From NCBI GenBank assembly GCA_035545755.1, contig DASZXQ010000048.1, positions 5,542 through 69,541 on the forward strand: 64,000 nt of DNA, given 5' to 3'. Below the pieces are notes generated by a model. That model was given only the letters and a program-made list of their open reading frames with translations. It had not been told where the DNA came from and did no database searches. A program made the translations under genes and the position numbers. Origin of the DNA: Chitinophagaceae bacterium. GTDB lineage: Bacteria > Bacteroidota > Bacteroidia > Chitinophagales > Chitinophagaceae. Shown here in pieces: positions 14,746 to 36,859 of this stretch (its first letter is position 1; every line of letters starts with the position of its first letter).

Positions 14746-15096
14746 ATTAGAGCCATAATCGATTTCTATCAGCCAATCTCTTGTTAATAACGTACTACTC
14801 CCATATTACCGGCAAATGAAAATTAGTCAATCACACAACGATAATTTTCCTGATCAATAGTTTATTGTAAGTCAATTCTGTTAATTCCAATTTATTATTC
14901 TTACAACTACATATCCGTATATTTCTTTCTCCAGATCTGTTATAAAGTAATTGCATAAAAGGTGTGATATTGGTTCAGGATTTATCCACTTTATCAGTGC
15001 TCTCCGCCTGAAAGGTTTCTCCGCTTTTATGAAATTATCATTTTCATGCATCTTAAGCAAGCATACAATCATTTACTTTGTACCAAATCTCGACTC

Positions 15097-18000
15097 ATGC
15101 CCGTACGACCAATTAAAAAAATTTTGCTGTTCAGTGTATTTTTAAGCCTTTTTACAGGTGCTTCAGCGCAAATTCCCCTCAAGAACTATGAATCAGAATG
15201 GAAGAAAGTGGAAGCATTTGTCCAAAAGAATCTTCCGAAATCCGCATTGGAGCAAGTGAAGAAGATCTACAGCATGGCCAAAGCCGATAAGCAGGATGCG
15301 CAGATCATCAAATCGTTATTGTATATGACGTCGCTCCAATCAGAGACCCGCGAGAATAATGATGTACAATCCATAAAAGATTTTGAAAAAGAAATTGCGT
15401 CTGCCAATCAACCGGCACGTTCGATCTTACAAAGTATCGTTGCTGAAATGTACCTGGATTATTTCGCCAATCATCGCTACCAATTTTATAGTCGAACTAA
15501 TACCATCAATTTTCAGAAAGATGATATTGCCACCTGGACGTCTGATGATCTTAATAAAAAGATCACTGAGTTGTACTTGCAATCTATCAAAGAAGAAAAA
15601 TTATTGGAACAGACAAAACTCGAACCTTTTGACGCTATCATTACAAAGGGGAATGTTCGCCACCTTCGCCCTACCCTATTTGACCTGCTGGCCCACCGGG
15701 CACTGGATTATTTTAAAAGTGATGAAAGAGATATTTCCCGGCCAGCTTATGCATTCGAAATAAACACTTCATCTGCATTTGATCCGGCATCCGATTTTGT
15801 TAAAGTAAAATTTCCAACTAAAGATTCAGCGTCTCTTCAGCAAAAAGCATTATTGCTGTTTCAAAAATTAATAGCATTTCACTTAAACGATGCCAAGCCT
15901 GATGCTTTAATTGATGTTGATATAGAAAGAATAGTATTTGTAAATGAAAAAGGAGTTCAGCCGGATAAGAAACAATTATATGTATCTGCCCTGAACCATA
16001 TTGCCCGGCAATATGAAAATTATCCTGCTGCTTCCCAAGCATTGTACCTGGTAGCGCAACAATACAATGAAGATGCTGATGAATACAAACCTTACGGAGA
16101 TACTACTCATCGTTTTGACCGGATAAAAGCAAAAGAAATTTGTGAAAGAGTGCTGCAACAGAAAGATTCTTCTGAAGGAAAGATCAATTGTTACAACCTG
16201 CTTAACGAGATCAATCAAAAGGATCTGTCATTTTCAGTTGAGAAAGTAAATATTCCCAATCAGCCGTTTCGCTCATTAGTGCAATACAAAAATTTTACTA
16301 CACTTTATCTGCGGATCGTTAAGTCTGATGAGAACCCGGTATCAGAGCCGGAAAATTTTTATGCTGATAAATTCTGGGAAAAACTTATAGCCACAACTCC
16401 AATAAGAAGCTGGCAACAATCCTTACCCGATACCAAAGACCTGCAACGGCATAGTGCAGAATTAAAAGTAGACGGTTTGCCAAACGGCAGATATGTACTG
16501 ATCGCTTCAACAGAAAAAGATTTCAACCTGAAAGATGGGTTCATCAGAGCCAGGTATTTTTATGTTTCCGATATCAGCTTTGTTAATAATGGAAGAAATT
16601 ACTTCGTAGTAAACCGGGAAACAGGGCAACCACTGGCCGGAGCTACCATTCAATCATGGGAAGGGAGATATGATTATAAAACCTCAAAATATATTTCGGA
16701 AAAAGGAAAGGCATTTAAAACAGATGAAAAAGGGTATTTCAATTTTGAAACAAAAAAAGATGCTACCACTTATGGCGTTAATTACCGGCTCGACATTACA
16801 TACAACAACGATCGTCTTTTCCTGAATGATGAATTGTATGACTATTATTATAACAACAATGCGGCAATTACCTCTTCAGAAAATATCACAGTGTTTTTAT
16901 TTACAGATCGTTCCATTTATCGCCCCGGGCAGACTGTTTTTTTCAAAGGCATTGCTGTAAGTAAAATGACTGACGAAACCACCAGTACGATCAAGGCCGG
17001 TTATGATACTAAAGTTTATTTGCGCAATGCAAATTATCAGACCATCGATTCAATGAATGTAAAAACCAATGAGTATGGTTCCTTCTCAGGAAATTTTCAG
17101 TTGCCACAATCCGGATTGAATGGAAATTTTACCCTGTACATGAAAGACAATAAGGGGACGGTCGATTTTTCTATGGAAGAATATAAGCGGCCAAATTTCT
17201 ATGTGGACTATGAAAAAATAAAAGGTACTTACAAGGTCAATGATTCCATAAAAGTTACTGGCATTGCAAAAGCCTATGCAGGCAATAATATTGATGGCGC
17301 CCAGGTGAAATATCGTGTAGTTCGCCAACCACGATTTATTTATTCATGGATGTTTTGGCGTTGGTGGCAACCTCCTGCCAAAGAAATGGAAATTGCACAT
17401 GGAGAAATGCAAACGGATAAAGATGGAAAATTTGATATCAGGTTTGCAGCTATTCCCGATCTGACCATTGATAAAAAATTTGATCCGGTATTTGATTATA
17501 CCATTTACGCAGATGTTACAGACATAAACGGTGAAACGAGAAGTGGTCAATCTTCCGTTACAGTCGGCTATCAATCTTTATTATTAAATGTAGATCTGCC
17601 TTCATCGCTTCCGTCAGATAGCTTGAAAAATATTACTATCCTTACTACCAATATGAACGGCGAGTTTGAAGCATCTAAAGTGAATGTCGTTATTTACAAA
17701 CTGAAACAGGAAGATCGTTTGATCCGCAACCGTTACTGGGATCGGCCTGACCAGTTTGTGATGAGTAAGGAAGAGTATATCCAAAATTTTCCGCATGATG
17801 AATATGATGATGAGGCTGATTACAGAAGCTGGGATGATCAAGAAAAGGTTTTTGAAAAGGGAGATTCAATCAATGAAAATTCAGAATTCAAAATTCAAAA
17901 TTCAAAACTTGCACCAGGCTTTTATAGAATCGAGGTTTCAACAAAAGATAAAGACGGCAATGACGTGAAAGATGTAGAATACATCGAACTATACAATGAA

Positions 18001-21000
18001 AAGAGCAATCAACTCACCAATGCAAAATATTTGTGGACGCAGGGATCAAATCCCATCGAGCCGGGAGAAAAAACGAATATTCAGTTAGGAACTTCCGCTG
18101 ATAATCTTTTCGTGATTGAACATATTGATAAGCAGTCAGGAGTCAGGAGTCAGGAATCAGGAGTTGGGAATTTCAGTGTTGTTCAATTAAACAATGAAAA
18201 GAAGTTGTTTGATTTTACAGCAACAGAATCGGATCGTGGCGGATATGGAGTAAATTATTTTTTTGTAAAAGACAATCACTTTTATGAATTCAATGATGTG
18301 ATCCGCGTGCCGTGGACTAATAAAGATTTGAAAATTGAATACGCTACTTTTCGTGATAAAACTTTGCCGGGAAGTGAAGAAAAATGGAAAGTAAGAATTA
18401 CCGGTTATAAAAATGAAAAAGTGGCAGCAGAAATGTTAGCCAGTATGTACGATGCATCGTTAGATCAATTCAAATATCATAGCTGGAATGAGCCTTATTT
18501 ATGGCCGATTTATTATTCCGGGCAAAGATGGAATAGTAGCTATAATTTTAGCCAGTTAATATCACAGCAACAGGCAAACAATAATTCAGATTTTAAATAC
18601 CTTAAGAAAGAATACGACTATTTAATTTTCAGCTTGCTAAATAATATATATGGCTATGGCGGCAATGTTATTCGCTTAAGAAGAATCAGTAGTATTGCTC
18701 AGCCAACAATGGCATTAGAAGGAAAAGTAGCAGGGCTACAAGAAGCTGTCGTTACCGGTCATGGCAAACAAAATAGAAAAAGCGATTCCACAGCTTTTAG
18801 AGCAAATAATGATGAAAATCAAATTTTTGAAAAAGTAGATGTAACGTTGCCCGACGGTACTCATATTGTAAATGGAAGAATAATTAACAAAAACATTAAA
18901 CCTGAAAATAATCAAGAAACTCAGATCAGAAAAAACTTCAACGAAACTGCGTTCTTCTTTCCTGTCCTGCACACCGATTCAACAGGGTCAATAGAATTTT
19001 CATTCACTATGCCGGAAGCATTGACAAGATGGAAGTTCATGGCATTGGCTCATACGAAAGACCTGGCATTCGGATATAGCACAAAAGAAATTGTTACACA
19101 AAAACAACTGATGGTACAACCTAATGCTCCGAGATTTTTAAGAGAAGGAGACCGGGTTGAATTCAGCGCCAAGATCGCTAACCTCACTGATAAAGAATTG
19201 ACCGGCTCAGCTGAATTACAATTATTCGATGCAGCAACTAACGAACCGGTTGATGGCGCTTTTCAGAATATGTATGCCAATCAATACTTCACTGTCGGTG
19301 CAGGACAAAGTGAAGCAGTAAATTTCCAATTACAAGTTCCCTATCAATTCAACAAAGCATTGACATGGCGCATCGTTGCCAAAGCTGGCGATTTCAGCGA
19401 TGGTGAAGAAGCATCACTGCCTGTTCTTACAAACCGGATGCTTGTCACTGAAACATTACCATTGAATATGAGAGGAACCGGAACTAAAAATTTCAAATTT
19501 GAAAAATTGCTGAATTCCGGAAATTCCGAAACATTACAAAATCATGCACTCACCATAGAATATACCAGCAATCCTGCCTGGTATGCGGTGCAGGCGCTGC
19601 CCTACCTCATGGAATATCCGTACGAGTGTGCAGAGCAAACATGGAACCGCTATTATGCAAATTCATTAGCAACAATGATCGTTAACAGTTCCCCCCGTAT
19701 CAAACAGGTATTTGAGAAATGGAGAACAGAAGACACAGCGGCTTTGCTTTCCAATCTTCAAAAGAATGAAGAATTAAAATCTGTATTACTGGAAGAAACT
19801 CCCTGGGTGCTGGATGCAAATAATGAAGAACAGCAAAAGAAAAATATTGCTCTCTTGTTTGATATGGTAAAAATGAGCAAAGAACTGGATGCTGCTTATG
19901 AAAAATTAAAACAGATGCAAAGCAGCAACGGTGGGTTTGTCTGGTTCAAAGGAGGGCCGGATGATCAATACATCACTCAATACATCATTACCGGAATTGG
20001 GCATTTGAAAAAACTGAATAGTTATTCAAAAGATCAGGACACCAAATTGAAACAAATACTCAATACTGCCCTGCCTTATCTTGATAAAAAAATTAAAGAA
20101 GATTATGATGAACTCGTAAAATATAAAACGGATCTGAAAAAATATGTTCCGGGTTATACAGAGATACAATATTTATATATGCGCAGCTTTTTCCCGGAAT
20201 ATCCCATTGCTTCAAATTCGCAAAAAGCATATAATTATTTCAGGCAAAGAGCGCAGAAAACCTGGGTGCAGCAAAACAAATACATGGAAGGAATGATCGC
20301 TTTGTCATTGTACAGGACTGGTGACGCAAGAACTCCGGCTGATATTTTGAGATCATTAAAAGAAACTTCTATTAATAATGAAGAGCTCGGCATGTATTGG
20401 AAAGATATCAGTAGCGGTTGGTTCTGGTACCAGGCGCCGATTGAAACGCAATCGTTGTTGATCGAAGCTTTCCAGGAAATTAGTAAGGATACAAAAACCG
20501 TTGATGACCTGAAAACATGGCTACTCAAAAACAAACAAACAAATAACTGGCAAACGACAAAAGCAACAGCAGAAGCTTGTTATGCTTTATTGTTGGAAGG
20601 AAGTGATTGGATCAGTGAAGCACCGCAAGTAGATATCAAATTGGGAAACACAGCTATCAATTCAAATGATAATAAGCAGGAAGCAGGGACCGGGTATTTC
20701 AAAAAAATTATTGATGGTGCAAGCGTAGAGCCCAATATGGGAAATATCAGTGTAACAGTTCAGCCCTCCAGTGATCAAAATAAATCTGCCACATCATGGG
20801 GAAGTATTTACTGGCAATATTTTGAAGACCTCGATAAGATCACTCCTGCTGCTACTCCGTTGAAATTGGTGAAGAAATTATTTATAGAAAAGAATACTGA
20901 TAACGGGCCGGTACTTACACCGGTAAGTGACGGTGATGAATTAAAAGTCGGAGATAAGGTGAAAGCGAGAATTGAACTGCGTGTCGATCGGGACATGGAA

Positions 21001-21276
21001 TATGTGCACATGAAAGATATGCGGGCCAGCTGCATGGAGCCTGTGAATGTATTGAGTGGCTATCAATGGCAGGATGGTTTAGGTTATTATGAATCTACCA
21101 AAGATGCCAGCACGAATTTCTTTTTCAATTACCTGAAAAAAGGAACGTACGTCTTCGAATACCCATTGTTCGTGACCAATAAAGGAAATTTCAGCAATGG
21201 GATCACTTCGATTCAGTGCATGTATGCACCTGAGTTTAGTTCGCATAGTGAAGGAATCAGAGTAACTGTGGAATAA
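15097..21276 (+). CDS. bacterial alpha-2-macroglobulin family protein (thioester-containing)
   Basis: About 2059 aa from ATG 15097 (signal peptide MPVRPIKKILLFSVFLSLFTGASAQ). MG-domain-like repeats. YPYECAEQT matches the CxEQ thioester motif. Confidence 0.9.
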   Translation: MPVRPIKKILLFSVFLSLFTGASAQIPLKNYESEWKKVEAFVQKNLPKSALEQVKKIYSMAKADKQDAQIIKSLLYMTSLQSETRENNDVQSIKDFEKEIASANQPARSILQSIVAEMYLDYFANHRYQFYSRTNTINFQKDDIATWTSDDLNKKITELYLQSIKEEKLLEQTKLEPFDAIITKGNVRHLRPTLFDLLAHRALDYFKSDERDISRPAYAFEINTSSAFDPASDFVKVKFPTKDSASLQQKALLLFQKLIAFHLNDAKPDALIDVDIERIVFVNEKGVQPDKKQLYVSALNHIARQYENYPAASQALYLVAQQYNEDADEYKPYGDTTHRFDRIKAKEICERVLQQKDSSEGKINCYNLLNEINQKDLSFSVEKVNIPNQPFRSLVQYKNFTTLYLRIVKSDENPVSEPENFYADKFWEKLIATTPIRSWQQSLPDTKDLQRHSAELKVDGLPNGRYVLIASTEKDFNLKDGFIRARYFYVSDISFVNNGRNYFVVNRETGQPLAGATIQSWEGRYDYKTSKYISEKGKAFKTDEKGYFNFETKKDATTYGVNYRLDITYNNDRLFLNDELYDYYYNNNAAITSSENITVFLFTDRSIYRPGQTVFFKGIAVSKMTDETTSTIKAGYDTKVYLRNANYQTIDSMNVKTNEYGSFSGNFQLPQSGLNGNFTLYMKDNKGTVDFSMEEYKRPNFYVDYEKIKGTYKVNDSIKVTGIAKAYAGNNIDGAQVKYRVVRQPRFIYSWMFWRWWQPPAKEMEIAHGEMQTDKDGKFDIRFAAIPDLTIDKKFDPVFDYTIYADVTDINGETRSGQSSVTVGYQSLLLNVDLPSSLPSDSLKNITILTTNMNGEFEASKVNVVIYKLKQEDRLIRNRYWDRPDQFVMSKEEYIQNFPHDEYDDEADYRSWDDQEKVFEKGDSINENSEFKIQNSKLAPGFYRIEVSTKDKDGNDVKDVEYIELYNEKSNQLTNAKYLWTQGSNPIEPGEKTNIQLGTSADNLFVIEHIDKQSGVRSQESGVGNFSVVQLNNEKKLFDFTATESDRGGYGVNYFFVKDNHFYEFNDVIRVPWTNKDLKIEYATFRDKTLPGSEEKWKVRITGYKNEKVAAEMLASMYDASLDQFKYHSWNEPYLWPIYYSGQRWNSSYNFSQLISQQQANNNSDFKYLKKEYDYLIFSLLNNIYGYGGNVIRLRRISSIAQPTMALEGKVAGLQEAVVTGHGKQNRKSDSTAFRANNDENQIFEKVDVTLPDGTHIVNGRIINKNIKPENNQETQIRKNFNETAFFFPVLHTDSTGSIEFSFTMPEALTRWKFMALAHTKDLAFGYSTKEIVTQKQLMVQPNAPRFLREGDRVEFSAKIANLTDKELTGSAELQLFDAATNEPVDGAFQNMYANQYFTVGAGQSEAVNFQLQVPYQFNKALTWRIVAKAGDFSDGEEASLPVLTNRMLVTETLPLNMRGTGTKNFKFEKLLNSGNSETLQNHALTIEYTSNPAWYAVQALPYLMEYPYECAEQTWNRYYANSLATMIVNSSPRIKQVFEKWRTEDTAALLSNLQKNEELKSVLLEETPWVLDANNEEQQKKNIALLFDMVKMSKELDAAYEKLKQMQSSNGGFVWFKGGPDDQYITQYIITGIGHLKKLNSYSKDQDTKLKQILNTALPYLDKKIKEDYDELVKYKTDLKKYVPGYTEIQYLYMRSFFPEYPIASNSQKAYNYFRQRAQKTWVQQNKYMEGMIALSLYRTGDARTPADILRSLKETSINNEELGMYWKDISSGWFWYQAPIETQSLLIEAFQEISKDTKTVDDLKTWLLKNKQTNNWQTTKATAEACYALLLEGSDWISEAPQVDIKLGNTAINSNDNKQEAGTGYFKKIIDGASVEPNMGNISVTVQPSSDQNKSATSWGSIYWQYFEDLDKITPAATPLKLVKKLFIEKNTDNGPVLTPVSDGDELKVGDKVKARIELRVDRDMEYVHMKDMRASCMEPVNVLSGYQWQDGLGYYESTKDASTNFFFNYLKKGTYVFEYPLFVTNKGNFSNGITSIQCMYAPEFSSHSEGIRVTVE
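17879..17906. repeat. heptanucleotide microsatellite (ATTCARA x4) inside the macroglobulin ORF
   Basis: attcaga attcaaa attcaaa attcaaa read directly, translated as SEFKIQNSK. Confidence 0.85.
18134..18168. repeat. heptanucleotide microsatellite (AGTCAGG x3 plus 2 degenerate units) inside the macroglobulin ORF
   Basis: agtcagg agtcagg agtcagg aatcagg agttggg read directly, translated as QSGVRSQESGVG. Confidence 0.85.
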
Positions 21277-26593: not shown

Positions 26594-27565
26594 TTATCCA
26601 CCTTTGACTGCCTTTGAAATAAGCCAAACATTCAAAACAATGTAAGCTACCAGGATCACCTGAGCCATAATCAGGTCAAATTGGCGAGCTTTCGAAGCTT
26701 TATTATTTTTAACGAGTTTCAATGAATACGCATTGGCGGCGATCACAGAAAAAATAAAGAACAATGTGATACCATGCAGTAGATCTACCAATGTAAAAGA
26801 AGAGGATTCCGGCAGCGAAGAATCAATAATATACTTATTGCCGATCACTGCAAACAATGCACCAACGCTCAAACCGAACCGGGAATCAATGCCATCAATG
26901 TGAATGTAAAAGCAAACATAAGCGATCAGGAAAGCGATAAACATTCCCAAAAACATTTTCCAGAATAATCCGCTGGCGTCACGTTTTATATCCAGCCTTA
27001 CCCGGAAATTACTGTACTCGGTGTGAGGTTTAGAAAGTGTTTCATCACCGAATGCAGTTTCGTAGGCTTTTGTGCCCGTTTGGATGACACAACTGTCAAT
27101 TGTCCACCCGCTGAGCGTGAAGCGAGGATCGAAATGTTCGCCGATTGTATCAGGTACAAAGATCAGCGACCTTGAGTCGTATTGTGAATTCTCGATGGAA
27201 AGACGCAGTTTTTGCTCATCAAAAGGAAAATTCCGGATCCTCCAGGAATCTTTCATTACACACTGCAGTTTCATGGTCATAAATATTCTTCCACCCGAAC
27301 TGTCTACCGTGAAAAAAGATTTATTGACGGTTTTTGCCATCGGTACTTCCAGGTTATTGGAAAAATCGAAATCCTTGTTTTTGTATTTCAACCACAACCA
27401 AAACGTAATGGTGTACTCCTTTTGTTTGAAATCTATATCATGTATGCTTATAATATAGATCCCGACCTTAACCGTATCCGGCTTTACATCCTGTGCAAGG
27501 GAATTATTGCTGAAAAAAAAGACAGAAAAAATAAAACTGATAGCATAAGCCAAATATCTTTTCAC
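26594..27565 (-). CDS. pentameric ligand-gated ion channel (Cys-loop receptor family) homologue
   Basis: Beta-rich N-terminal domain with VKVGIYIISIHDIDFKQKEYTITFWLWL and FPFDEQKLRLSIE (Cys-less Cys-loop signature), followed by four TM helices with an LPESSSFTLVDLL M2-M3 motif. Start placed at GTG 27565 (MKRYLAYAISFIFSVFFFSNNSLAQ signal peptide). The ORF is open to GTG 27637. Confidence 0.6.
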   Translation of the reverse strand: MKRYLAYAISFIFSVFFFSNNSLAQDVKPDTVKVGIYIISIHDIDFKQKEYTITFWLWLKYKNKDFDFSNNLEVPMAKTVNKSFFTVDSSGGRIFMTMKLQCVMKDSWRIRNFPFDEQKLRLSIENSQYDSRSLIFVPDTIGEHFDPRFTLSGWTIDSCVIQTGTKAYETAFGDETLSKPHTEYSNFRVRLDIKRDASGLFWKMFLGMFIAFLIAYVCFYIHIDGIDSRFGLSVGALFAVIGNKYIIDSSLPESSSFTLVDLLHGITLFFIFSVIAANAYSLKLVKNNKASKARQFDLIMAQVILVAYIVLNVWLISKAVKGG

Positions 27566-27656
27566 CGAATTACAATTTTGATCAGGAAAGATAGAGAACC
27601 CGGGATGAAAAACCAAACTCAGAAAAGCTTTAACCACACATTATTATTCAAATTTA

Positions 27657-29189: not shown

Positions 29190-30590
29190 ATGCAAAAAAC
29201 AAGATTATACTTTTTCATACTGCTGCTTATTTGTAGCAGCACTGGTATTTATTCTCAAAAACAAAAGGCGGACAGTTTACGGAACCTGTTGGCACAAGAA
29301 AAAACAGACACTGACAAGGTAAGAGTAATGTGGCAACTGGCAAATGTTCTTTACAGCAATGATCCCGATACGTCGCTGAGCCTGGCACAGGAGGCTTATT
29401 ATCTTGCCAAGCGCAATAATTATGTAGAAGGGGAATCCCGTTCGCTGGGAATTCTCGCAAGCACATTCAGGATAATCGGTAATTATCCCCGTGCTCTTGC
29501 GCTGAATCTTGAGAAGTTGAAACTGGAAGAAAAAAGAAATGTGCCCCGCAATCAGGCAAGTGTGCTGATGAATATCGGCATCGTATATGTGTTCCAGGAA
29601 GAATATAACAAAGCATTGGGTTATTATTCCCAGGCAGATTCAGTGATCAATAAAGATAATGTAGAAGATTTCAAATACAATATTGCACTGAATATCGGTG
29701 ATGCTTACAACAAACTAAACATTTCAGATTCGGCATACCTGTATTTCCAAAAATCGTTGAATATTGCCAAAGCACAAAACGATGGCGACCTGATAGGCAC
29801 TTCAATGACCGGACTTGGGCACACTTACTTAAAGAAGGGGAATTATACAGAAGCAGAATCAAACTATCAAACTGCTATAAAATTATTAAAGGAAGCAGAA
29901 GATGATGAAGTACTTTGTGAAGCAGCATTGGGCATGGCCAAATTGTATGAAACACTGAATAGAAATGATTCTGCCCGGCGATATGCCGATCTAGCACTTT
30001 CTGTTGCAACAAATGATGGGTTTCTTTCCTGGCAATATGATGCTACAAATTTTCTTACCAACCATTTTAAAAAAGTGAACAAAATAGACAGTGCTTTTTT
30101 CTTTGCAGAATATTCCCACCAACTCAATGATTCATTGAACAGCAAGGCAAAGATCCGCCAATTTCAAAGCCTGACAGTAGAGGAGCAATTTCGTCAGCGG
30201 GAGTTACAGGAAGAAAAAGCTATTGCAGCAAAAAAAAGGTACCAGCAATTGCAACTGCTGCTGATCGGAATATTCATTCCCGGATTTTTCCTGATCACTT
30301 TATTATTGAGCCGTGCCCAAATTCATATAGGGATAATCCGTGCATTGGGAGTATTGTCACTTCTCTTTTTCTTTGAATACCTTACTTTATTACTGCACCC
30401 CACTGTAGCAGAATTAACTGATCATACACCGATATTGGAAATACTGATATTTGTGGGAATAGCAGCGATACTGATCCCACTGCATCATCGTGTGGAGCAT
30501 TGGTTGATTCATCGTCTCATCCATCACCGTATACATCATGAAGAGGAAGACAAAAAAAATCACCCGCATAAGATCTCACCGGTTAAATGA
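29190..30590 (+). CDS. TPR-repeat membrane protein (sensor-like, no output domain)
   Basis: Signal peptide, then about 300 aa of TPR-like repeats, a coiled-coil segment, about 3 TM helices and a His-rich tail (HHRVEHWLIHRLIHHRIHHEEEDKKNHPHK). Confidence 0.75.
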   Translation: MQKTRLYFFILLLICSSTGIYSQKQKADSLRNLLAQEKTDTDKVRVMWQLANVLYSNDPDTSLSLAQEAYYLAKRNNYVEGESRSLGILASTFRIIGNYPRALALNLEKLKLEEKRNVPRNQASVLMNIGIVYVFQEEYNKALGYYSQADSVINKDNVEDFKYNIALNIGDAYNKLNISDSAYLYFQKSLNIAKAQNDGDLIGTSMTGLGHTYLKKGNYTEAESNYQTAIKLLKEAEDDEVLCEAALGMAKLYETLNRNDSARRYADLALSVATNDGFLSWQYDATNFLTNHFKKVNKIDSAFFFAEYSHQLNDSLNSKAKIRQFQSLTVEEQFRQRELQEEKAIAAKKRYQQLQLLLIGIFIPGFFLITLLLSRAQIHIGIIRALGVLSLLFFFEYLTLLLHPTVAELTDHTPILEILIFVGIAAILIPLHHRVEHWLIHRLIHHRIHHEEEDKKNHPHKISPVK

Positions 30591-30633: not shown

Positions 30634-30858
30634 TTAATTACCTTCCTTTACAGGCCTTGTTCCTGCTGTATCCATTTTGTTCATGCCGGTATCCATCTTT
30701 TTCATACTTGATGAATCAGACGACATTGTATTCATCGTGTTGGTAGTGGTATCTTTGTTAGCAGCCTTTTCCTCGCTCTTATTATTACAAGCAACGAACA
30801 GGAATGCAGCAACCACCACAGACAAAATGATCCGGTAAACAGTTTTTTGTTTGGTCAT
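30634..30858 (-). CDS. small Met-rich lipoprotein
   Basis: The ATG at 30858 gives MTKQKTVYRIILSVVVAAFLFVAC (lipobox). The mature part is Met/Thr/Ser/Asp-rich (TMNTMSSDSSSMKKMDTGMNKMDT). Confidence 0.5.
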   Translation of the reverse strand: MTKQKTVYRIILSVVVAAFLFVACNNKSEEKAANKDTTTNTMNTMSSDSSSMKKMDTGMNKMDTAGTRPVKEGN

Positions 30859-30912
30859 AATTAAAAAATTTAACCATAAGAGTACGACAAGTACCGGTCT
30901 TTTCCAAAAAAA

Positions 30913-32337
30913 ATGAAAGGTTTGCAAAAAGCTGTAGCTTTAAAATTCAAACATTTGTTCGTGAGGTCAAAAATATTCATACTTTTTGCATTGATGTTCA
31001 TTGATTGCGTTGCTATTTACGGACAATCTATTTATAATTTTCAATACAATTTCCAGGGTCAGAATAGCACCGTGACGTACCACACTTTCATGCTCCGCAA
31101 TATTGATGGCAGTGGTTTGATACGGATACGGTTTCAAAACGCAACCGACGGGACTGATGTTCTTGTAGAGACAGATGTTGACGAGCAGTACCCGATGGAT
31201 GCGTCCGGTACGCAAGATACCAGCACTTTATTGATCACTGCTATCAATCCAAATGTCATCATTGGCAATAACCAATCAAATTATACATTACCTGTTTTTA
31301 TTTTTAAGTATAATGCCGCAACTGATTTTTTTGAGCCTTCGGGAGCAGTTGATGCAAAAAACAATAATAACCATGCAGATTCTTTTTCATGGCAATTGAT
31401 AGAAGCGGCTGCGATAAGCAAAGAATTTATTTTACAATATTTCAGCGAGGATGAAGATTTTTATACTAATCTTTTCAAACCGGTTACTAAAGGATTATCC
31501 CCGTTAGAAAAAAATATCCGCTTGCATTTGCTGGTAGTTGCAGATACGTTGGATGAGACGATCGGATCATCGTGCAACAAGGACATGCAGCGAGCTGTTG
31601 AAACTTTTCAAAATCTTACAGATTATCTTGGCATAAAATTTCTACCTACTACAATTTGCGGAAAGCAGTACAGCAAAACAAATGTCCAGGCTGCCATTGA
31701 AGCCTTGAAGCCATCGCACGATGATATTGTTGTGTTTTATTATTCCGGGCATGGTTTCAGAATACCGGAGAAACCGAGAGATTTCCCAAACCTGAAACTC
31801 AAAAACTTTAAAAATCTCCTGCAGAATTTCAGAGATAGTGCATCATGGATCAAAAAAGACAGGCAGGATAACATTACCTACTCCATGAACATGGAAGATA
31901 TTTTTGACATGATCAGGAAAAAAGGAGCCCGATTCAACTTAGTACTGAGTGATTGCTGCGATGATGATATTTTTTCCGTTAATGCCACCGGTACCAAACC
32001 GGGAAAAACAAAAGGCTCTGGTGTAGAATGGAGCGAGGATAATATCCGGGCACTTTTTCTGAACAAAACACCCATGTCAATCTTAGCAACTGCAGCAAGG
32101 CAAGGTCAGCGGGCATCAAGTAATAATAATTTTGGCGGATTCTTTTCTTATTTTTTCAAAATGTCCATGGAAAATTATTGCAGCAAATTGAAAACCTCTC
32201 CTACCTGGGACCAAATTTTCCAGGACGCCATCGTTCAGACTATCAACAAAGCGAATCATACTTATTGCGACAAACCATACATCCCGGCCAACATCTGCCA
32301 CCAGGAACCTATTTATAAAATTGTATTTGGACAGTGA
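30913..32337 (+). CDS. exported caspase-family (peptidase C14) protein with unassigned N-terminal domain
   Basis: 474 aa with a hydrophobic signal-like N-terminus. Caspase dyad contexts VVFYYSGHGF (His) and LVLSDCCDD (Cys). Confidence 0.8.
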   Translation: MKGLQKAVALKFKHLFVRSKIFILFALMFIDCVAIYGQSIYNFQYNFQGQNSTVTYHTFMLRNIDGSGLIRIRFQNATDGTDVLVETDVDEQYPMDASGTQDTSTLLITAINPNVIIGNNQSNYTLPVFIFKYNAATDFFEPSGAVDAKNNNNHADSFSWQLIEAAAISKEFILQYFSEDEDFYTNLFKPVTKGLSPLEKNIRLHLLVVADTLDETIGSSCNKDMQRAVETFQNLTDYLGIKFLPTTICGKQYSKTNVQAAIEALKPSHDDIVVFYYSGHGFRIPEKPRDFPNLKLKNFKNLLQNFRDSASWIKKDRQDNITYSMNMEDIFDMIRKKGARFNLVLSDCCDDDIFSVNATGTKPGKTKGSGVEWSEDNIRALFLNKTPMSILATAARQGQRASSNNNFGGFFSYFFKMSMENYCSKLKTSPTWDQIFQDAIVQTINKANHTYCDKPYIPANICHQEPIYKIVFGQ

Positions 32338-35300
32338 TCAGTGTTTGACTTTATCATAGTCGATCGGATTGATCTTTCCTGTCATCTCTTTCCATTTATT
32401 TTTTGACCGGTAATCATCCCATGTTGTATCCAATTTCAAAATCCAGTAATAATGAAAGCCTTTATCAATTGATAGCTGCAACCATTGCCATGCTTCCTTT
32501 TCATTTTTCATCTGGGCATATAATTTGGCAATGGTATACATTACGGAAAAATTATCAGGGTTTGAAGAAAGAAAATCCTGGTAATAGGGCAGTGCCTTTA
32601 CAGGATTTTTTGACAAGAGTTCCAATCTTCCATTCAGATCAGCTATTCCCGGTAACATATAAGGATAAATAGATACCGCCTCTGCCAATATTTTTTTGGC
32701 CTTATCAAACTGGCCTGAGTAGATACTAAATTCGCCCAGTAGCAGACGATCCGGAAAATTTATTTTTTTATTGTCATACAAATAATCAAGATTTTCAAGT
32801 GCTGCCCTGTTTTTGTAAATAGACTTGCATACATCGATAATTCGTAAACGGGTAGCAGCATTCTCCGGATCCATTTGAATAGATTTTGCATAATTAGGAT
32901 AAGCCTGTTTGTTGGAGCCAGCCCAGACAAACACATTGCCGACCTTAAAATAAATGTCGGCAACTGTTTTAGTTTCTGTAAATAAGTCGGCTGCTTTTAA
33001 TAAAAATTCGATAGCGTCTTTTCGGGGTGTATAAATCGGTTCGGCCAAAGAAATTTGTTCTTTTGTGCCGGGTATTTCCAGTGATTCACTGAATTCTCTT
33101 ATCATTCCTAACTGAATGTTTTGAGGAGAAGAGGGGTCATTCTTATCACCAATAAAAAGAGTCGGGTCGTTTGTAAGTTTGCTGTAAATATCAAAATCAA
33201 TGAATTTTTCCTGGTTCAATACAGGGAAATGAACGATCGTATCAAAATAGGGTGCCCTCGATGGACGTTCAGCACGGGGGTAAAGCAGCAGCCCTAACCG
33301 GTAATACCAATCCCCGTTAGTGGGAAAACGCTGGATCATTCTTCGATAAAACGCATTTAGCTCCCGATCCGAACTTTCCCTATCCTGTACAGCAAAACTT
33401 TTAATTGTTGCTTCGGCTTCGGTGTATCGTTCTGTTCTTTCCTGCATTTGCCAAAGCTTGACATAGCCTCCCATATAAAAGGGTCGCATTTTAATAACCT
33501 TTCTTAAATATGTTTCTGCCTCTTCATAATGAGACCATGATTCATAAACAGTGGCAATGAAAAAATAATCTTCGATATCATCATATTGGCTTTCTCTGAA
33601 AAAATTTTCGAAACAATCATGCGGGTACGGATATTTTACTTTTTTGATCACAGAATCACAGTACAATCCTAAGGAACTATCTGACAAATGACAGTCAATG
33701 GCAAATTTGAACATCAATTCTGCATCTTCCCATTGCTGCTGGTCGAAGAATATCTTACCCATGTAATGAAATACCAGCGGGTTTGTTTTATCCAGTGCGA
33801 TGACCTTTTTAAAGAATCGGACTGCAGTTTTATAATCCCGGACCTGGTATTGCTGAAGCGCATACGTAAAAAAAGCCATGATGTCATCTTTTTTCAGGAT
33901 GCTTGTATCCACCTCGCAATGCGGGCCTACTACTGCCGGCAGCACGATCGGAGAAGCTACTACTGCCCAACCATTGCCTTCAAAATGAAATCCCTTTTTT
34001 CTTTTATCGGCTTCATAAAAAAAAGAATCTGCCTGGGCGTATTTTGTAGTATTCATATATACATATCCCAATCGTTCAAATGGCAGGTAATGGCGGGAAT
34101 TGATATCAATACTTTTCCTATAATCTTCTTCAGCAAATAATAAGTTCCCGGAATTTTCATTGAGCACACCGAGATTCACATGCGTACCCTGAAGATCGGG
34201 TTGCAAACTATCGGCTATATGTGCAGTTTCTAAACCTTTATCAAACTTTTTTTCAAGTGCATAGAGTCCACACATATTGGCCCAGGGAATGGCCCATGTC
34301 GGCGCTATTTGGGTAGCTCTGAAAAAATATTTTTCGGCAGCAGCATAATTTTTCTTAAGTTCTGATAGGACGCCAAGTTCATTCTGAATATAAGCGGCAT
34401 TTTCTTCTAACTGGAATGCCTTTTGTTGTTCGGCCATTGCCAGGTCTAATAATGGTTTTGGATCTTCAACTGTCGGGATTTTTAACCTGGCTACAACGCC
34501 GGAAAAATAATGAAGCTTCACCAGCAGAATATGATAGATCGGGCTTTGCGGATCGGCTAACTTTAATGCAACTGAAAACATCTTTGGATAAATATCATAT
34601 CCGCTACTATTAACATTATAATACTGTCTTTTTTCTAATTCGGCAGCATCCCCGGTCAGGTATAAATTGATGATCTCCTGCCCCCGATCACTTAGGGCAA
34701 CAACAAGTTTATCATCGAATCGTTTTAAGGCGTCCGGATTTTGATCAAACGATTTCTCTAACTGATCAATCTTGCCAATATCTACTTTCAGGCTGTCGGC
34801 TGTTTGGAAAGCGGATTGCTTTTGAAGAGTGTCGACAAGCATCTTGATAAATGCCAATGGAATTTCTTCTTTTGATAATTGATCGAGTTTATTGAAATCA
34901 ACCAACTCTTCGATATTCTTTTTGCCGATCAAACCAAAAAGATAACCCAGTGGCGGCACCGGCAATGGTTTTAAAAAAATTGATGGCTGACTTCTTTGTA
35001 AACCAGCTGCGGAAAAAAACCGTTGCTTCAAAGAATCCAAAGAAGTTTTATTTACGCTTGCCAATCGGAAATTAGAAGGTCCGTTAATTACAGGAGTTTG
35101 TTTCTGGTTTTTTTGAGCTAACAAAATATCTTTCGAAAGGGAAGAGTCCAGGTAGTTTCCTATTTCTTTTACAGTAACGACCCCGTTATTGAGATTATCC
35201 GCAAGGCCGATCATTCCATTGACGAGGTAATAAGAAAATACGCCTCTGCCGCCACCCCACCCTTCATCTTCATTGGAAAGTTCATCAGGCCCGCAGGAAG

Positions 35301-35916
35301 TAATGCGAACTTCATTTCCCTGCACTGTTCTCAATTGATCACCGACCAACAAACTTCCTCTGAATTCATTACCGGCTAAATTCCCTGAATGACAGGCATC
35401 AGTAATGAGCACTACTCTTGCTTGTCGTTGTACAGATAAAGTGTTCGCAAAATTGTTCAGGTCTTCCAATCGTACGGCATTGTTAAGATAATTAAATCGT
35501 GGAGTGTTATAAGTGAGCAGGAAACCGAGTTTATAGATCGTATTATTTTCCATATCACCATGGCCTGAAAAATAAAAATAGACCATGTCTCCTTTCTGAC
35601 ATGTTTCCAATAACCAGTTCATTGCATCATAAACAGCAGCAAATGTGGCGCTCTCATTAGTCAGCAACCGGATATTTTCCGGCGGCACCGAGCCTCCTGC
35701 TTTTGATTCGAGATAAGAAGCAAACACTTTTGCATCCCGGTCTGCATAATCCAGTTGGGTGATCACGGTACTTTCATATTGGGAAATACCAACGACTATC
35801 GCATACGTATTGCTGCTGACAGCAGTTTGCTGTGGCGAAGCATTGGGAGAATTGATTTGAGAAAATCCTGCAAAGCAGTTTATAAATAAACTTATTATCA
35901 GAAAGCAGTTTCTCAT
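32338..35916 (-). CDS. exported caspase-family (peptidase C14) domain fused to a long TPR-like repeat region
   Basis: 1192 aa. Signal peptide MRNCFLIISLFINCFAGFSQ. YAIVVGISQY, YFYFSGHGD (His) and VLITDACHSGN (Cys). The remaining ~900 aa are helical TPR-like repeats. Confidence 0.85.
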   Translation of the reverse strand: MRNCFLIISLFINCFAGFSQINSPNASPQQTAVSSNTYAIVVGISQYESTVITQLDYADRDAKVFASYLESKAGGSVPPENIRLLTNESATFAAVYDAMNWLLETCQKGDMVYFYFSGHGDMENNTIYKLGFLLTYNTPRFNYLNNAVRLEDLNNFANTLSVQRQARVVLITDACHSGNLAGNEFRGSLLVGDQLRTVQGNEVRITSCGPDELSNEDEGWGGGRGVFSYYLVNGMIGLADNLNNGVVTVKEIGNYLDSSLSKDILLAQKNQKQTPVINGPSNFRLASVNKTSLDSLKQRFFSAAGLQRSQPSIFLKPLPVPPLGYLFGLIGKKNIEELVDFNKLDQLSKEEIPLAFIKMLVDTLQKQSAFQTADSLKVDIGKIDQLEKSFDQNPDALKRFDDKLVVALSDRGQEIINLYLTGDAAELEKRQYYNVNSSGYDIYPKMFSVALKLADPQSPIYHILLVKLHYFSGVVARLKIPTVEDPKPLLDLAMAEQQKAFQLEENAAYIQNELGVLSELKKNYAAAEKYFFRATQIAPTWAIPWANMCGLYALEKKFDKGLETAHIADSLQPDLQGTHVNLGVLNENSGNLLFAEEDYRKSIDINSRHYLPFERLGYVYMNTTKYAQADSFFYEADKRKKGFHFEGNGWAVVASPIVLPAVVGPHCEVDTSILKKDDIMAFFTYALQQYQVRDYKTAVRFFKKVIALDKTNPLVFHYMGKIFFDQQQWEDAELMFKFAIDCHLSDSSLGLYCDSVIKKVKYPYPHDCFENFFRESQYDDIEDYFFIATVYESWSHYEEAETYLRKVIKMRPFYMGGYVKLWQMQERTERYTEAEATIKSFAVQDRESSDRELNAFYRRMIQRFPTNGDWYYRLGLLLYPRAERPSRAPYFDTIVHFPVLNQEKFIDFDIYSKLTNDPTLFIGDKNDPSSPQNIQLGMIREFSESLEIPGTKEQISLAEPIYTPRKDAIEFLLKAADLFTETKTVADIYFKVGNVFVWAGSNKQAYPNYAKSIQMDPENAATRLRIIDVCKSIYKNRAALENLDYLYDNKKINFPDRLLLGEFSIYSGQFDKAKKILAEAVSIYPYMLPGIADLNGRLELLSKNPVKALPYYQDFLSSNPDNFSVMYTIAKLYAQMKNEKEAWQWLQLSIDKGFHYYWILKLDTTWDDYRSKNKWKEMTGKINPIDYDKVKH

Positions 35917-36004: not shown

Positions 36005-36038
36005 AAAAGCCGTCAAATTACTCTTCAACGGCTTTTTT
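36005..36038 (-). terminator. hairpin downstream of the OM barrel gene
   Basis: AAAAGCCGT ... ACGGCTTTT 9-bp perfect inverted repeat with flanking A/T runs. Confidence 0.5.
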
Positions 36039-36091: not shown

Positions 36092-36859
36092 TTAATGCTT
36101 CAATAAAATCGCATACCCCAAAGTGATAAATAATCCACCAGTATGGTTTTTACCATCATCTTGTTTGTCTTTTTGAATAGTGGTAAGGCCATCAGCAGCT
36201 CTAACATCCAAAATGAGATCTCCGCATTTACCCATATTTTTACTGATACCGGCTCCGCCTGTGATTCCAAAGTTTGTTGTTTTCAAACTTGATTTTACAT
36301 CCGTAGTTGCGTCGAAAGACTGAGGCGGCAGAGGTTGCCCGGAAATTTCTACAGGCTGAGTGCCGCCGCTGTCAAAATAGAGTTGGCTGCTGCCACTGGT
36401 TTTTTGTTTAGCTGCTAAAAGAAATCCGACATAAGGGCCAATATCCACGTAGTATCGCCAGCTATTACCCCACTCCCATTTTGCCATTACCGGTATCTCC
36501 AGATAATCTAAAGCAGACACATTTTTAAAATCTGCATAAAGCAATGTGCCGGGAGGTATCATTGAACTAAGCGCCGGTGGAATATCAGTAACAGGTTGCA
36601 TGCCGGTTCTCTTGCCACCCTGGCCGGCATAGTTGATAAAAGTTTTTATAGAAAATGTTTTATCAATATTGAAATCAGCAAAAGCGCCAAATGTTGATGC
36701 AAGCCTGGATTTATAGCCCTGGCTGAGTTCATTGCTATTGTTGCTCTTTAATTCGGGGATACTAACACCGGCATTCAAGCCAAGCTTGATCTTTTGTGCT
36801 TTTGATGAATACCAAAACAATATGCATGAGGATAGTAGAAGGAAGATAGCTTTTCTCAT
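36092..36859 (-). CDS. outer-membrane beta-barrel (porin-family) protein
   Basis: 255 aa. Signal peptide MRKAIFLLLSSCILFWYSSKAQ. Alternating-hydrophobic strands and Gly/aromatic-rich segments typical of small OM barrels. Confidence 0.75.
   Translation of the reverse strand: MRKAIFLLLSSCILFWYSSKAQKIKLGLNAGVSIPELKSNNSNELSQGYKSRLASTFGAFADFNIDKTFSIKTFINYAGQGGKRTGMQPVTDIPPALSSMIPPGTLLYADFKNVSALDYLEIPVMAKWEWGNSWRYYVDIGPYVGFLLAAKQKTSGSSQLYFDSGGTQPVEISGQPLPPQSFDATTDVKSSLKTTNFGITGGAGISKNMGKCGDLILDVRAADGLTTIQKDKQDDGKNHTGGLFITLGYAILLKH

Follow-up and report, generated by a model that had tools for sequence, protein, structure and literature searches.

Caspase-type peptidases of bacterial conflict systems are cytoplasmic, share an operon with a gasdermin gene or that of some other effector, and frequently occur as fusions with NACHT/STAND modules. 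Beyond phage defence, next to nothing is known of what the thousands of caspase homologues in bacteria do. Here we describe two peptidase genes of family C14, termed A and B, in a stretch of 64,000 nucleotides ('the window') from a Chitinophagaceae bacterium (GenBank assembly GCA_035545755.1, contig DASZXQ010000048.1, positions 5,542 to 69,541 of the forward strand); positions given below are those of the window. The two genes are convergent, their stop codons touch, and both products carry conserved leaders predicted to direct their export. On balance, we lean towards reading the locus as a conserved extracytoplasmic two-protease module, restricted for the most part to the Chitinophagaceae and other Chitinophagales. 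The locus offers a defined set of conserved parts, namely two exported proteases, a barrel domain, a membrane protein with tetratricopeptide repeats (TPR) and a lipoprotein. This set predicts a role that is neither cytoplasmic nor defensive, with the catalytic dyads of both proteases and R/K193, K/R367 and Cys452/Cys462 of A as candidate key sites.

The orthocaspases and metacaspases (MEROPS C14B; PMC3501461, PMC6426788) share with A and B the C14 fold, the His-Cys dyad, acidic S1 residues and fusions to TPR or WD40 repeats. TPR and WD40 repeats are the commonest fusion partners in surveys of bacterial C14 proteins, in which N-terminal helices were considered to be probable signal peptides (PMC3501461). 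Bacteroidetes are rich in such genes and account for ∼12% of bacterial orthocaspases (Klemencic et al. 2019, PMC6426788), Haliscomenobacter, a member of the Chitinophagales, has 28 C14 copies (PMC3501461), and metacaspases of Bacteroidetes were proposed in a survey of 2016 to take part in polymer degradation (PMC4933709). In contrast to the surveyed proteins (PMC3501461, PMC6426788), the present locus combines two very divergent C14 peptidases in a conserved convergent pair, one of which bears a family-specific barrel domain, with a TPR/transmembrane protein (T) and a lipoprotein alongside. A first-pass annotation, made from the window itself, had taken the pair for a different, uncharacterised use of caspase-fold proteases; signal-peptide-bearing C14-TPR and C14-WD40 architectures were, however, catalogued in 2012 by Asplund-Samuelsson et al. 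(PMC3501461), and an 'exported C14-TPR' protein is thus a known architecture. In the literature, of which our journal coverage was partial, we came across no characterised extracytoplasmic bacterial C14 peptidase and no account of the family in Chitinophaga; the same literature yielded nothing on the convergent pair, the barrel domain or the association with T and the lipoprotein.

Gingipains and PorU (C25) as well as PmC11 and fragipain (C11) are exported enzymes of the caspase fold, often specific for Arg or Lys and activated by loop cleavage. They are thus comparable to A and B as exported caspase-fold cysteine peptidases of the same phylum, but belong to families C25 and C11 rather than C14 and possess neither a TPR scaffold nor a paired second protease; the C-terminal domain by which gingipains use the type IX secretion system (T9SS) is absent from A and B. 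Conflict-system caspases, too, have TPR or WD40 repeats as fusion or association partners, whereas A and B have signal peptides, no effector or NTPase gene nearby, and scores below the cut-offs of the corresponding models. The clan of caspase-fold cysteine proteases has been reviewed (PMC4357240).

Two C14 peptidases with intact dyads

Both open reading frames (ORFs) stand as the first-pass annotation delimited them, and the C14 dyads that it read in their translations are borne out by profile searches, by alignment and by conservation. Against Pfam Peptidase_C14 (PF00656; gathering score 21.4), A scores 41.1 bits over residues 220-434 and B 52.3 bits over residues 38-279. In an alignment with the yeast metacaspase Yca1, the FYFSGHG and TDACHSG motifs of B fall residue by residue on its catalytic His and Cys, and His119 (codon 35560-35562), Asp173 and Cys175 (codon 35392-35394) are invariant in all 120 sequences of the B family. 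Within TDACHSG, the residues T-D-A-C and the final G are present in 120/120 sequences, and the His and Ser behind the Cys in 119/120. For A, a sequence search of the PDB placed the FYYSGHG motif on the His motif of Arabidopsis metacaspase-9 and gave nothing beyond this match. His280 (codon 31750-31752) and the triplet Asp347-Cys348-Cys349 (31951-31959) are invariant in the 38 sequences of the A family examined (43-86% identity); of the two adjacent cysteines, either of which may be the catalytic residue, C349 fits the D-x-C pattern. The AlphaFold2 model of full-length A (mean predicted local distance difference test (pLDDT) 85.5, predicted template modelling score (pTM) 0.82) supports the fold, as its C-terminal domain matches MALT1 paracaspase, caspase-3/7/8, Geobacter GSU0716 and metacaspase-9 with E = 1e-7 to 1e-5. 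A and B are therefore probably catalytically competent C14 peptidases, to judge from these conserved positions. Between them, the two C14 domains give a BLASTP match of E = 0.002 over 11 residues; this motif-level similarity indicates ancient paralogues and not a recent duplication.

Further invariant positions bear on specificity and activation. Asp224 of A, which sits in an early '..DA/..DM' motif, is present in 38/38 sequences, and in B, Asp173 is found in 120/120 and Asp61 in at least 97%. Asp61 lies in the corresponding early motif of B, and D347 of A and D173 of B stand two residues ahead of the likely catalytic Cys. By analogy with TbMCA2 and Yca1, we take D347/D224 of A and D173/D61 of B to be the acidic residues of the S1 pocket. 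Two such residues are typical of metacaspases and orthocaspases, and A and B probably cleave after Arg or Lys. A loop of the form KPGKT(K/R)GSG follows directly on the catalytic Cys of A. The basic residue in this loop (K/R367) and the one in the T-(R/K)-G-(L/F) motif of the interdomain linker (R/K193) are both conserved in 38/38 sequences and both lie in loops of lower model confidence; they are candidate activation cleavage sites if the protease is Arg/Lys-specific. Cys452 and Cys462, near the C-terminus of A, are invariant across the same sequences and may form a disulfide, consistent with an oxidising compartment.

In B, the caspase domain is followed by a middle region of ∼210 residues in which Pfam returned nothing at E up to 10, and then by a long scaffold in which about ten Pfam TPR families match between ∼residues 490 and 1190. 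Tandem arrays of two to four B paralogues behind a single A occur at six of the related loci (L045, L046, L059, L071, L076 and L084). The second copy in L084 has no precomputed C14 match, but the idea that it might be a pseudo-protease was dropped, as its dyad is intact.

Export signals of A and B

The true start of A is probably the GTG at 30961, 16 codons past the first ATG of the ORF, as in the homologues; with this start, the apparent overlap with the upstream gene disappears. Nearly all A homologues begin with M-(K/R)-x-(K/R), followed by ∼15 hydrophobic residues and an invariant Gln-Ser (Q38-S39 in the numbering from the ATG, which is used for A throughout). Complete B homologues start likewise, with ..(S/A)-Q placed ∼10-20 residues ahead of the first caspase strand. 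Export was assessed by this conservation together with a hydropathy heuristic, in which a 10-mer of mean Kyte-Doolittle hydropathy ≥2.2 within the first 45 residues is followed by Gln. The pattern is present in 108/113 relatives of A (Gln at median position 22) and in 97/115 relatives of B (median 20). Among the controls from the window, the secreted GH18 and outer membrane (OM) barrel proteins show it, with Gln at 20 and 22, and the cytoplasmic AspRS, RpiB, DEAD helicase, FabH, CSD and RRM proteins do not.

Gln at position +1 of signal peptidase I sites constitutes the 'Bacteroidetes Q-rule' and is explicitly no sorting signal (PMC5837995). Thus, the rule supports export of A and B, as the first-pass annotation had proposed, and says nothing on their final destination. 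Both proteins carry conserved signal peptides of this type, which are predicted to be processed by the Sec/signal peptidase I route. A T9SS C-terminal domain (Por_Secre_tail/CTD) was found in neither protein with Pfam and NCBIfam. An assignment of B as a lipoprotein was considered and rejected, as the Cys in its leader lies outside any lipobox and is unconserved.

Conservation of the convergent pair

Relatives of A were collected with a degenerate-pattern scan in which one genome stood for each GTDB species; it identified 449 species, and the neighbourhood counts below refer to the best 80 of these 449 species' A loci, in which ORFs were called and clustered and neighbours were read. The hosts are nearly all Chitinophagaceae or other Chitinophagales (Ferruginibacter, Terrimonas, Agriterribacter, Lacibacter), and the pairing of A with B is kept across many soil and sludge Chitinophagaceae.

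At loci with at least 1.5 kb of sequence downstream of A, a convergent B follows in 34/72 and a convergent C14-DUF4384 gene in 7/72. The product of the latter (c13, 660 residues) consists of a signal peptide, Peptidase_C14 and DUF4384; behind it stands a gene for a protein of 1245 residues (c23) with a signal peptide, WD40 propellers and a C-terminal caspase domain. When A is at least 47% identical to the window protein, a convergent exported C14 partner is found in 22/22 species-level loci, B in 16 and the C14-DUF4384 and WD40-C14 pair in 6. In the reverse direction, three B relatives picked independently of A all have a convergent C14 gene at their 3′ end (3/3), with a T-like gene beyond it, beside A; the C14 partner has ∼445 residues (370 as called in L085). 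The neighbouring of the two C14 genes in related genomes, on which the first-pass proposal depended, is thus seen from both sides. Of the 58 loci that could be read upstream as well as downstream of A, only 3 lack both a C14 partner and T.

The junction itself is unusually tight. The abutting stops at TGATCA, which the first-pass annotation had pointed out, are as described, and we see no terminator-like site there. Across the related loci, the gap between A and B has a median of 9 bp and is ≤25 bp in 83%; the 141 other convergent pairs of these loci have a median of 85 bp, with 30% at ≤25 bp (Fisher p ∼2e-8, a figure to be read in the light of the dropping of ORFs <150 aa, which inflates some of the background gaps, and of loci that are not phylogenetically independent). 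We conclude that the pairing of A and B is not due to chance.

In a neighbour-joining tree of A, the loci partnered with the C14-DUF4384 gene form one clade nested among those partnered with B, and the loci in which T is on the opposite strand (divergent) and no B is adjacent form a separate clade. The layout of the window, with T and A on the forward strand and the lipoprotein gene and B on the reverse strand (in the order T, lipoprotein, A, B), recurs in several deep branches and is therefore probably ancestral. The replacement of B in situ by other exported C14-repeat proteases speaks for a functional partnership between A and a second C14 enzyme that bears a scaffold. The contig JBGSPB010000011.1 has an A-B locus (L006) and, ∼45 kb apart, a locus with the lipoprotein gene, T and A in the order forward, reverse, forward (L054); two A subfamilies thus coexist, and the four-gene set can be split over two sites.

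Searches for defence partners were negative, and the first-pass annotation had likewise seen no gasdermin-like gene. With Pfam, NCBIfam, PADLOC and the neighbourhoods, we found no gasdermin, NACHT/STAND NTPase or other defence partner near A and B, and PADLOC reported domain-level 'caspase' and 'TPR' matches only; the pair is surrounded by T, the lipoprotein, an OM barrel and housekeeping genes. Against NCBIfam caspase_w_EACC1, B scores 67.8 and A 26.7 bits, both under the cut-off of 140. The GC content of the locus is like that of the rest of the window.

A family-specific barrel in A

The N-terminal domain of A, to which the first-pass annotation could assign no family, was modelled alone with AlphaFold2 at a pLDDT of 87.7 and a pTM of 0.81, and shows eight antiparallel strands and two short helices. 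A Pfam scan at E up to 10 gave no family, and Foldseek against the PDB no match at E ≤0.001. The weak matches (E = 0.045-0.2, template modelling (TM) scores of 0.36-0.47) are all eight-stranded up-and-down barrels, among them the ToxS periplasmic domain, lipocalins, nitrophorins, nitrobindin, GID4 and MucB. Searching 1.84 billion representative proteins with a profile built from the domain retrieved 222 clusters only. Essentially all of them are proteins of 440-460 residues, with the domain starting from ∼residue 22, right behind the leader; fragments and two 575-residue variants with a C-terminal extension share the same core. As the domain is confined to one architecture and matches no known family, we regard it as a family-specific calycin-like barrel. 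That it binds a ligand or peptide is a reasonable guess.

Functionally, RseB/MucB-DegS and ToxS-ToxR offer a parallel, in which a periplasmic barrel sensor controls proteolysis of a membrane protein. Nevertheless, the likeness is one of function only: the fold matches are insignificant (E ≥0.045, TM score ∼0.36), the protease belongs to another class, and no sigma/anti-sigma pair is linked. A giant repeat protein of 6458 residues (P0292) matches profile positions 24-58 of the domain 26 times along its length, probably through a short beta-hairpin motif of the type 'DGSG..R.RY' (possibly YD/RHS-like) and not through true homology.

The membrane TPR protein and the lipoprotein

T lies within three genes upstream of A in 35/63 evaluable loci. 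It matches TPR_12 and related families in Pfam, and has a conserved IPxHHR(V/I/L)EHW(L/F)I motif behind its third transmembrane helix; no output domain was detected at its C-terminus with Pfam at E up to 10. T aligns with the N-terminal TPR and transmembrane part of the NCBIfam FimS sensor (positions 3-370 of 618, 91.6 against a cut-off of 600), and T homologues give faint TPR_SusR matches. In contrast to the FimS/SusR sensors, whose periplasmic TPRs and transmembrane helices lead to a cytoplasmic output, T has no kinase or DNA-binding output, and its short cytoplasmic tail carries the HHRxEHW motif. The small lipoprotein gene is found at the 3′ end of T in at least 30/44 cases, convergent every time, and its family is characterised by a conserved C-terminal (M)DTAxT(R/K)P(V/I) motif.

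Some features that the first-pass annotation had assigned to the neighbourhood did not hold. The lipoprotein gene spans 30634-30858 and does not reach 30927, and the Met-rich lipoprotein and the His-tail of T, which it had listed as features of the locus, are lineage-specific: the last 45 residues of T hold 10 His in the window against a family median of 3, and the Met content of the lipoprotein family varies from 1 to 11%. A 'metal theme' was thus rejected. Its five-gene envelope neighbourhood reduces to a conserved set of four (T, lipoprotein, A and B), in which the OM barrel is incidental; the statement that the flanking genes all encode envelope proteins is correct for the immediate neighbours and fails beyond them. 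The OM barrel gene is kept only where A is at least 73% identical and lies behind a strong hairpin (Table 1) that is likely to be a terminator and looks bidirectional and intrinsic, which would place this gene in a transcription unit separate from B. Flanking genes outside the set of four, the OM barrel, DEAD helicase and endonuclease III included, are unconserved beyond close relatives.

Table 1. Coordinates of the features of the A/B locus in the window
Feature	Position	Strand	Description
T	29190..30590	+	TPR/three-transmembrane-helix protein; predicted signal peptide (cleavage before Q23), periplasmic TPRs, coiled coil, three transmembrane helices
Small lipoprotein	30634..30858	-	∼74-residue precursor; lipobox ..FVAC/NN; convergent with T
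Gene A	30913..32337 (first ATG, 474 aa) or 30961..32337 (GTG, 458 aa)	+	predicted exported C14 peptidase with family-specific N-terminal barrel
A signal peptide	30961..31023	+	predicted; M/V-RSK, hydrophobic core, ..IYG/Q; Gln at position 22 from GTG
A N-terminal domain	31024..31407	+	residues 38-165; eight-stranded antiparallel calycin-like barrel (AlphaFold2)
A interdomain linker	31408..31518	+	conserved FFSEDEDFY..LF..T(R/K)G(L/F) motif; lower model confidence
A caspase-fold domain	31519..32334	+	Pfam, PDB sequence alignment, conservation, AlphaFold2 with structure matches
Abutting stops	32335..32340		TGA/TCA (TGATCA), context GGA CAG TGA/TCA GTG; no intergenic space
Gene B	32338..35916	-	1192 aa; predicted exported C14 peptidase with TPR scaffold
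B TPR region	32341..34446	-	∼700 aa; TPR end-of-group domain at residues 1126-1178
B middle region	34447..35076	-	residues 281-490 (∼210 aa); no family match
B caspase domain	35077..35811	-	residues 36-280; Pfam, Yca1 alignment, conservation
B signal peptide	35860..35916	-	predicted (MRNCFLIISLFINCFAGFS/Q); conservation and heuristic
Hairpin	36005..36036	-	13-bp perfect hairpin with flanking A and T tracts, between OM barrel gene and B
OM barrel gene	36092-36859		neighbour beyond B

Proposed role and alternative explanations

If the locus is a two-protease module, the site of action of A and B would be the periplasm or the outer membrane. The TPR array of B (∼700 residues) would recruit protein substrates or partners, and the calycin-like barrel of A might bind a small ligand or peptide and so gate the protease domain behind it. 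Cleavage at R/K193 and K/R367, by A itself or by B, would serve activation. T, a sensor-like protein that lacks an output domain, could be an anchor, a regulator or a substrate, as could the lipoprotein, whose C-terminal peptide is conserved. The net role would then be the regulated processing or turnover of envelope proteins, and not cytoplasmic cell-death signalling. The suggestion of the first-pass annotation that ligand-sensing TPR scaffolds drive envelope protein processing is, in this form, a conjecture.

Several points weigh against this reading. Among the more distant A paralogues, roughly half are accompanied by T and have no adjacent B, such that A-B adjacency is not obligatory, and a convergent arrangement is weaker evidence of co-regulation than an operon. 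The loci are related by descent, and the counts and p-values overstate their independence; moreover, the members of the A and B families are nearly all from metagenome-assembled genomes. The Arg/Lys specificity, the activation sites, the disulfide and the interactions of A with B, T and the lipoprotein are deduced from conservation alone.

A more specific version of the module would be an extracytoplasmic caspase-type cascade, in which B (or the C14-DUF4384/WD40-C14 proteins) is a TPR-scaffolded initiator that cleaves and so activates A as a small ligand-gated executioner, with T and the lipoprotein wired in, and which controls envelope remodelling or cell fate. We consider such a cascade unlikely as it stands; if true, it would extend two-tier caspase-like activation to the bacterial envelope.

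Alternatively, A and B could be independent secreted digestive peptidases for nutrient scavenging, whose adjacency reflects no functional coupling. Chitinophagaceae are polymer degraders, both proteins are exported, and a part in polymer degradation has been proposed for Bacteroidetes metacaspases (PMC4933709). However, the pair and its tight junction are kept while the other flanking genes turn over, and the position of B is taken by other C14-repeat proteins. Neither protein has the T9SS C-terminal domain for release from the cell, no linkage to SusC/SusD or to a transporter is seen, and a TPR scaffold of 700 residues together with a membrane TPR partner points to specific protein-protein recognition. 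Uncoupled digestion thus appears to be an improbable account of the locus.

We hold it quite improbable that the pair acts from outside the cytoplasm to bring about autolysis or programmed cell death, with envelope stress unleashing the proteases on essential envelope proteins. The general link of C14 proteases to cell death and the expansion of these genes in filamentous and aggregate-forming Chitinophagales (28 copies in Haliscomenobacter; PMC3501461) would fit such a role, as would a layout suggestive of two tiers, a scaffolded protease and a small one. Against it, neither an amidase nor a pore-former nor any other lytic effector accompanies the genes in the loci examined.

The third alternative concerns the chemistry. 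Clan-CD enzymes are able to catalyse transpeptidation, and one or both enzymes could be a sortase-like transpeptidase or maturase for surface proteins, comparable to PorU, legumain or the glycosylphosphatidylinositol transamidase. Export and intact dyads are compatible with this role, and the strictly conserved C-terminal peptide of the lipoprotein might be a recognition tag. Yet the lipoprotein is missing from many A-B loci, and we found no family of candidate cargo proteins united by a sorting signal. We also know of no C14 enzyme that is a transpeptidase or maturase, and find this explanation very doubtful.

A cytoplasmic conflict or abortive-infection system, akin to the gasdermin-activating or EACC1/NTPase-linked caspases, is largely refuted and barely credible: C14-TPR and C14-WD40 fusions are common in conflict systems and B matches PADLOC 'caspase' (E = 1e-19) and NCBIfam caspase_w_EACC1 at the domain level, but A, B, c13, c23 and T all have conserved signal peptides, the caspase_w_EACC1 scores are sub-threshold, no conflict component lies nearby, the base composition is native, and the family is contained within one bacterial lineage.

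Other features of the neighbourhood

An Rfam scan of the window gave no match. The corrected starts of A and of the lipoprotein gene are separated by a short AT-rich divergent region of ∼100 bp (30859-30960), which presumably holds the promoters of both genes. Upstream of the pair by ∼10 kb, the window encodes a bacterial alpha-2-macroglobulin of 2076 residues (15046-21276, forward strand; MG2, A2M, bMG10), a periplasmic protease trap. This gene is not kept next to A and B in other loci and is therefore probably unrelated to the pair. A protein of 347 residues (26594-27637, reverse strand), which matches Neur_chan_LBD with E = 1.4e-8 and has hydrophobic C-terminal segments, looks like a prokaryotic homologue of the pentameric ligand-gated ion channels. 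Finally, a small secreted Cys-rich DUF6370 protein with a CxxC motif recurs near the T/A or B genes in several lineages (L084, 1-255; L085, 6590-6958; and as cluster c15 in L054, L056, L064, L073, L079, L082 and L083) and could be a further accessory component.

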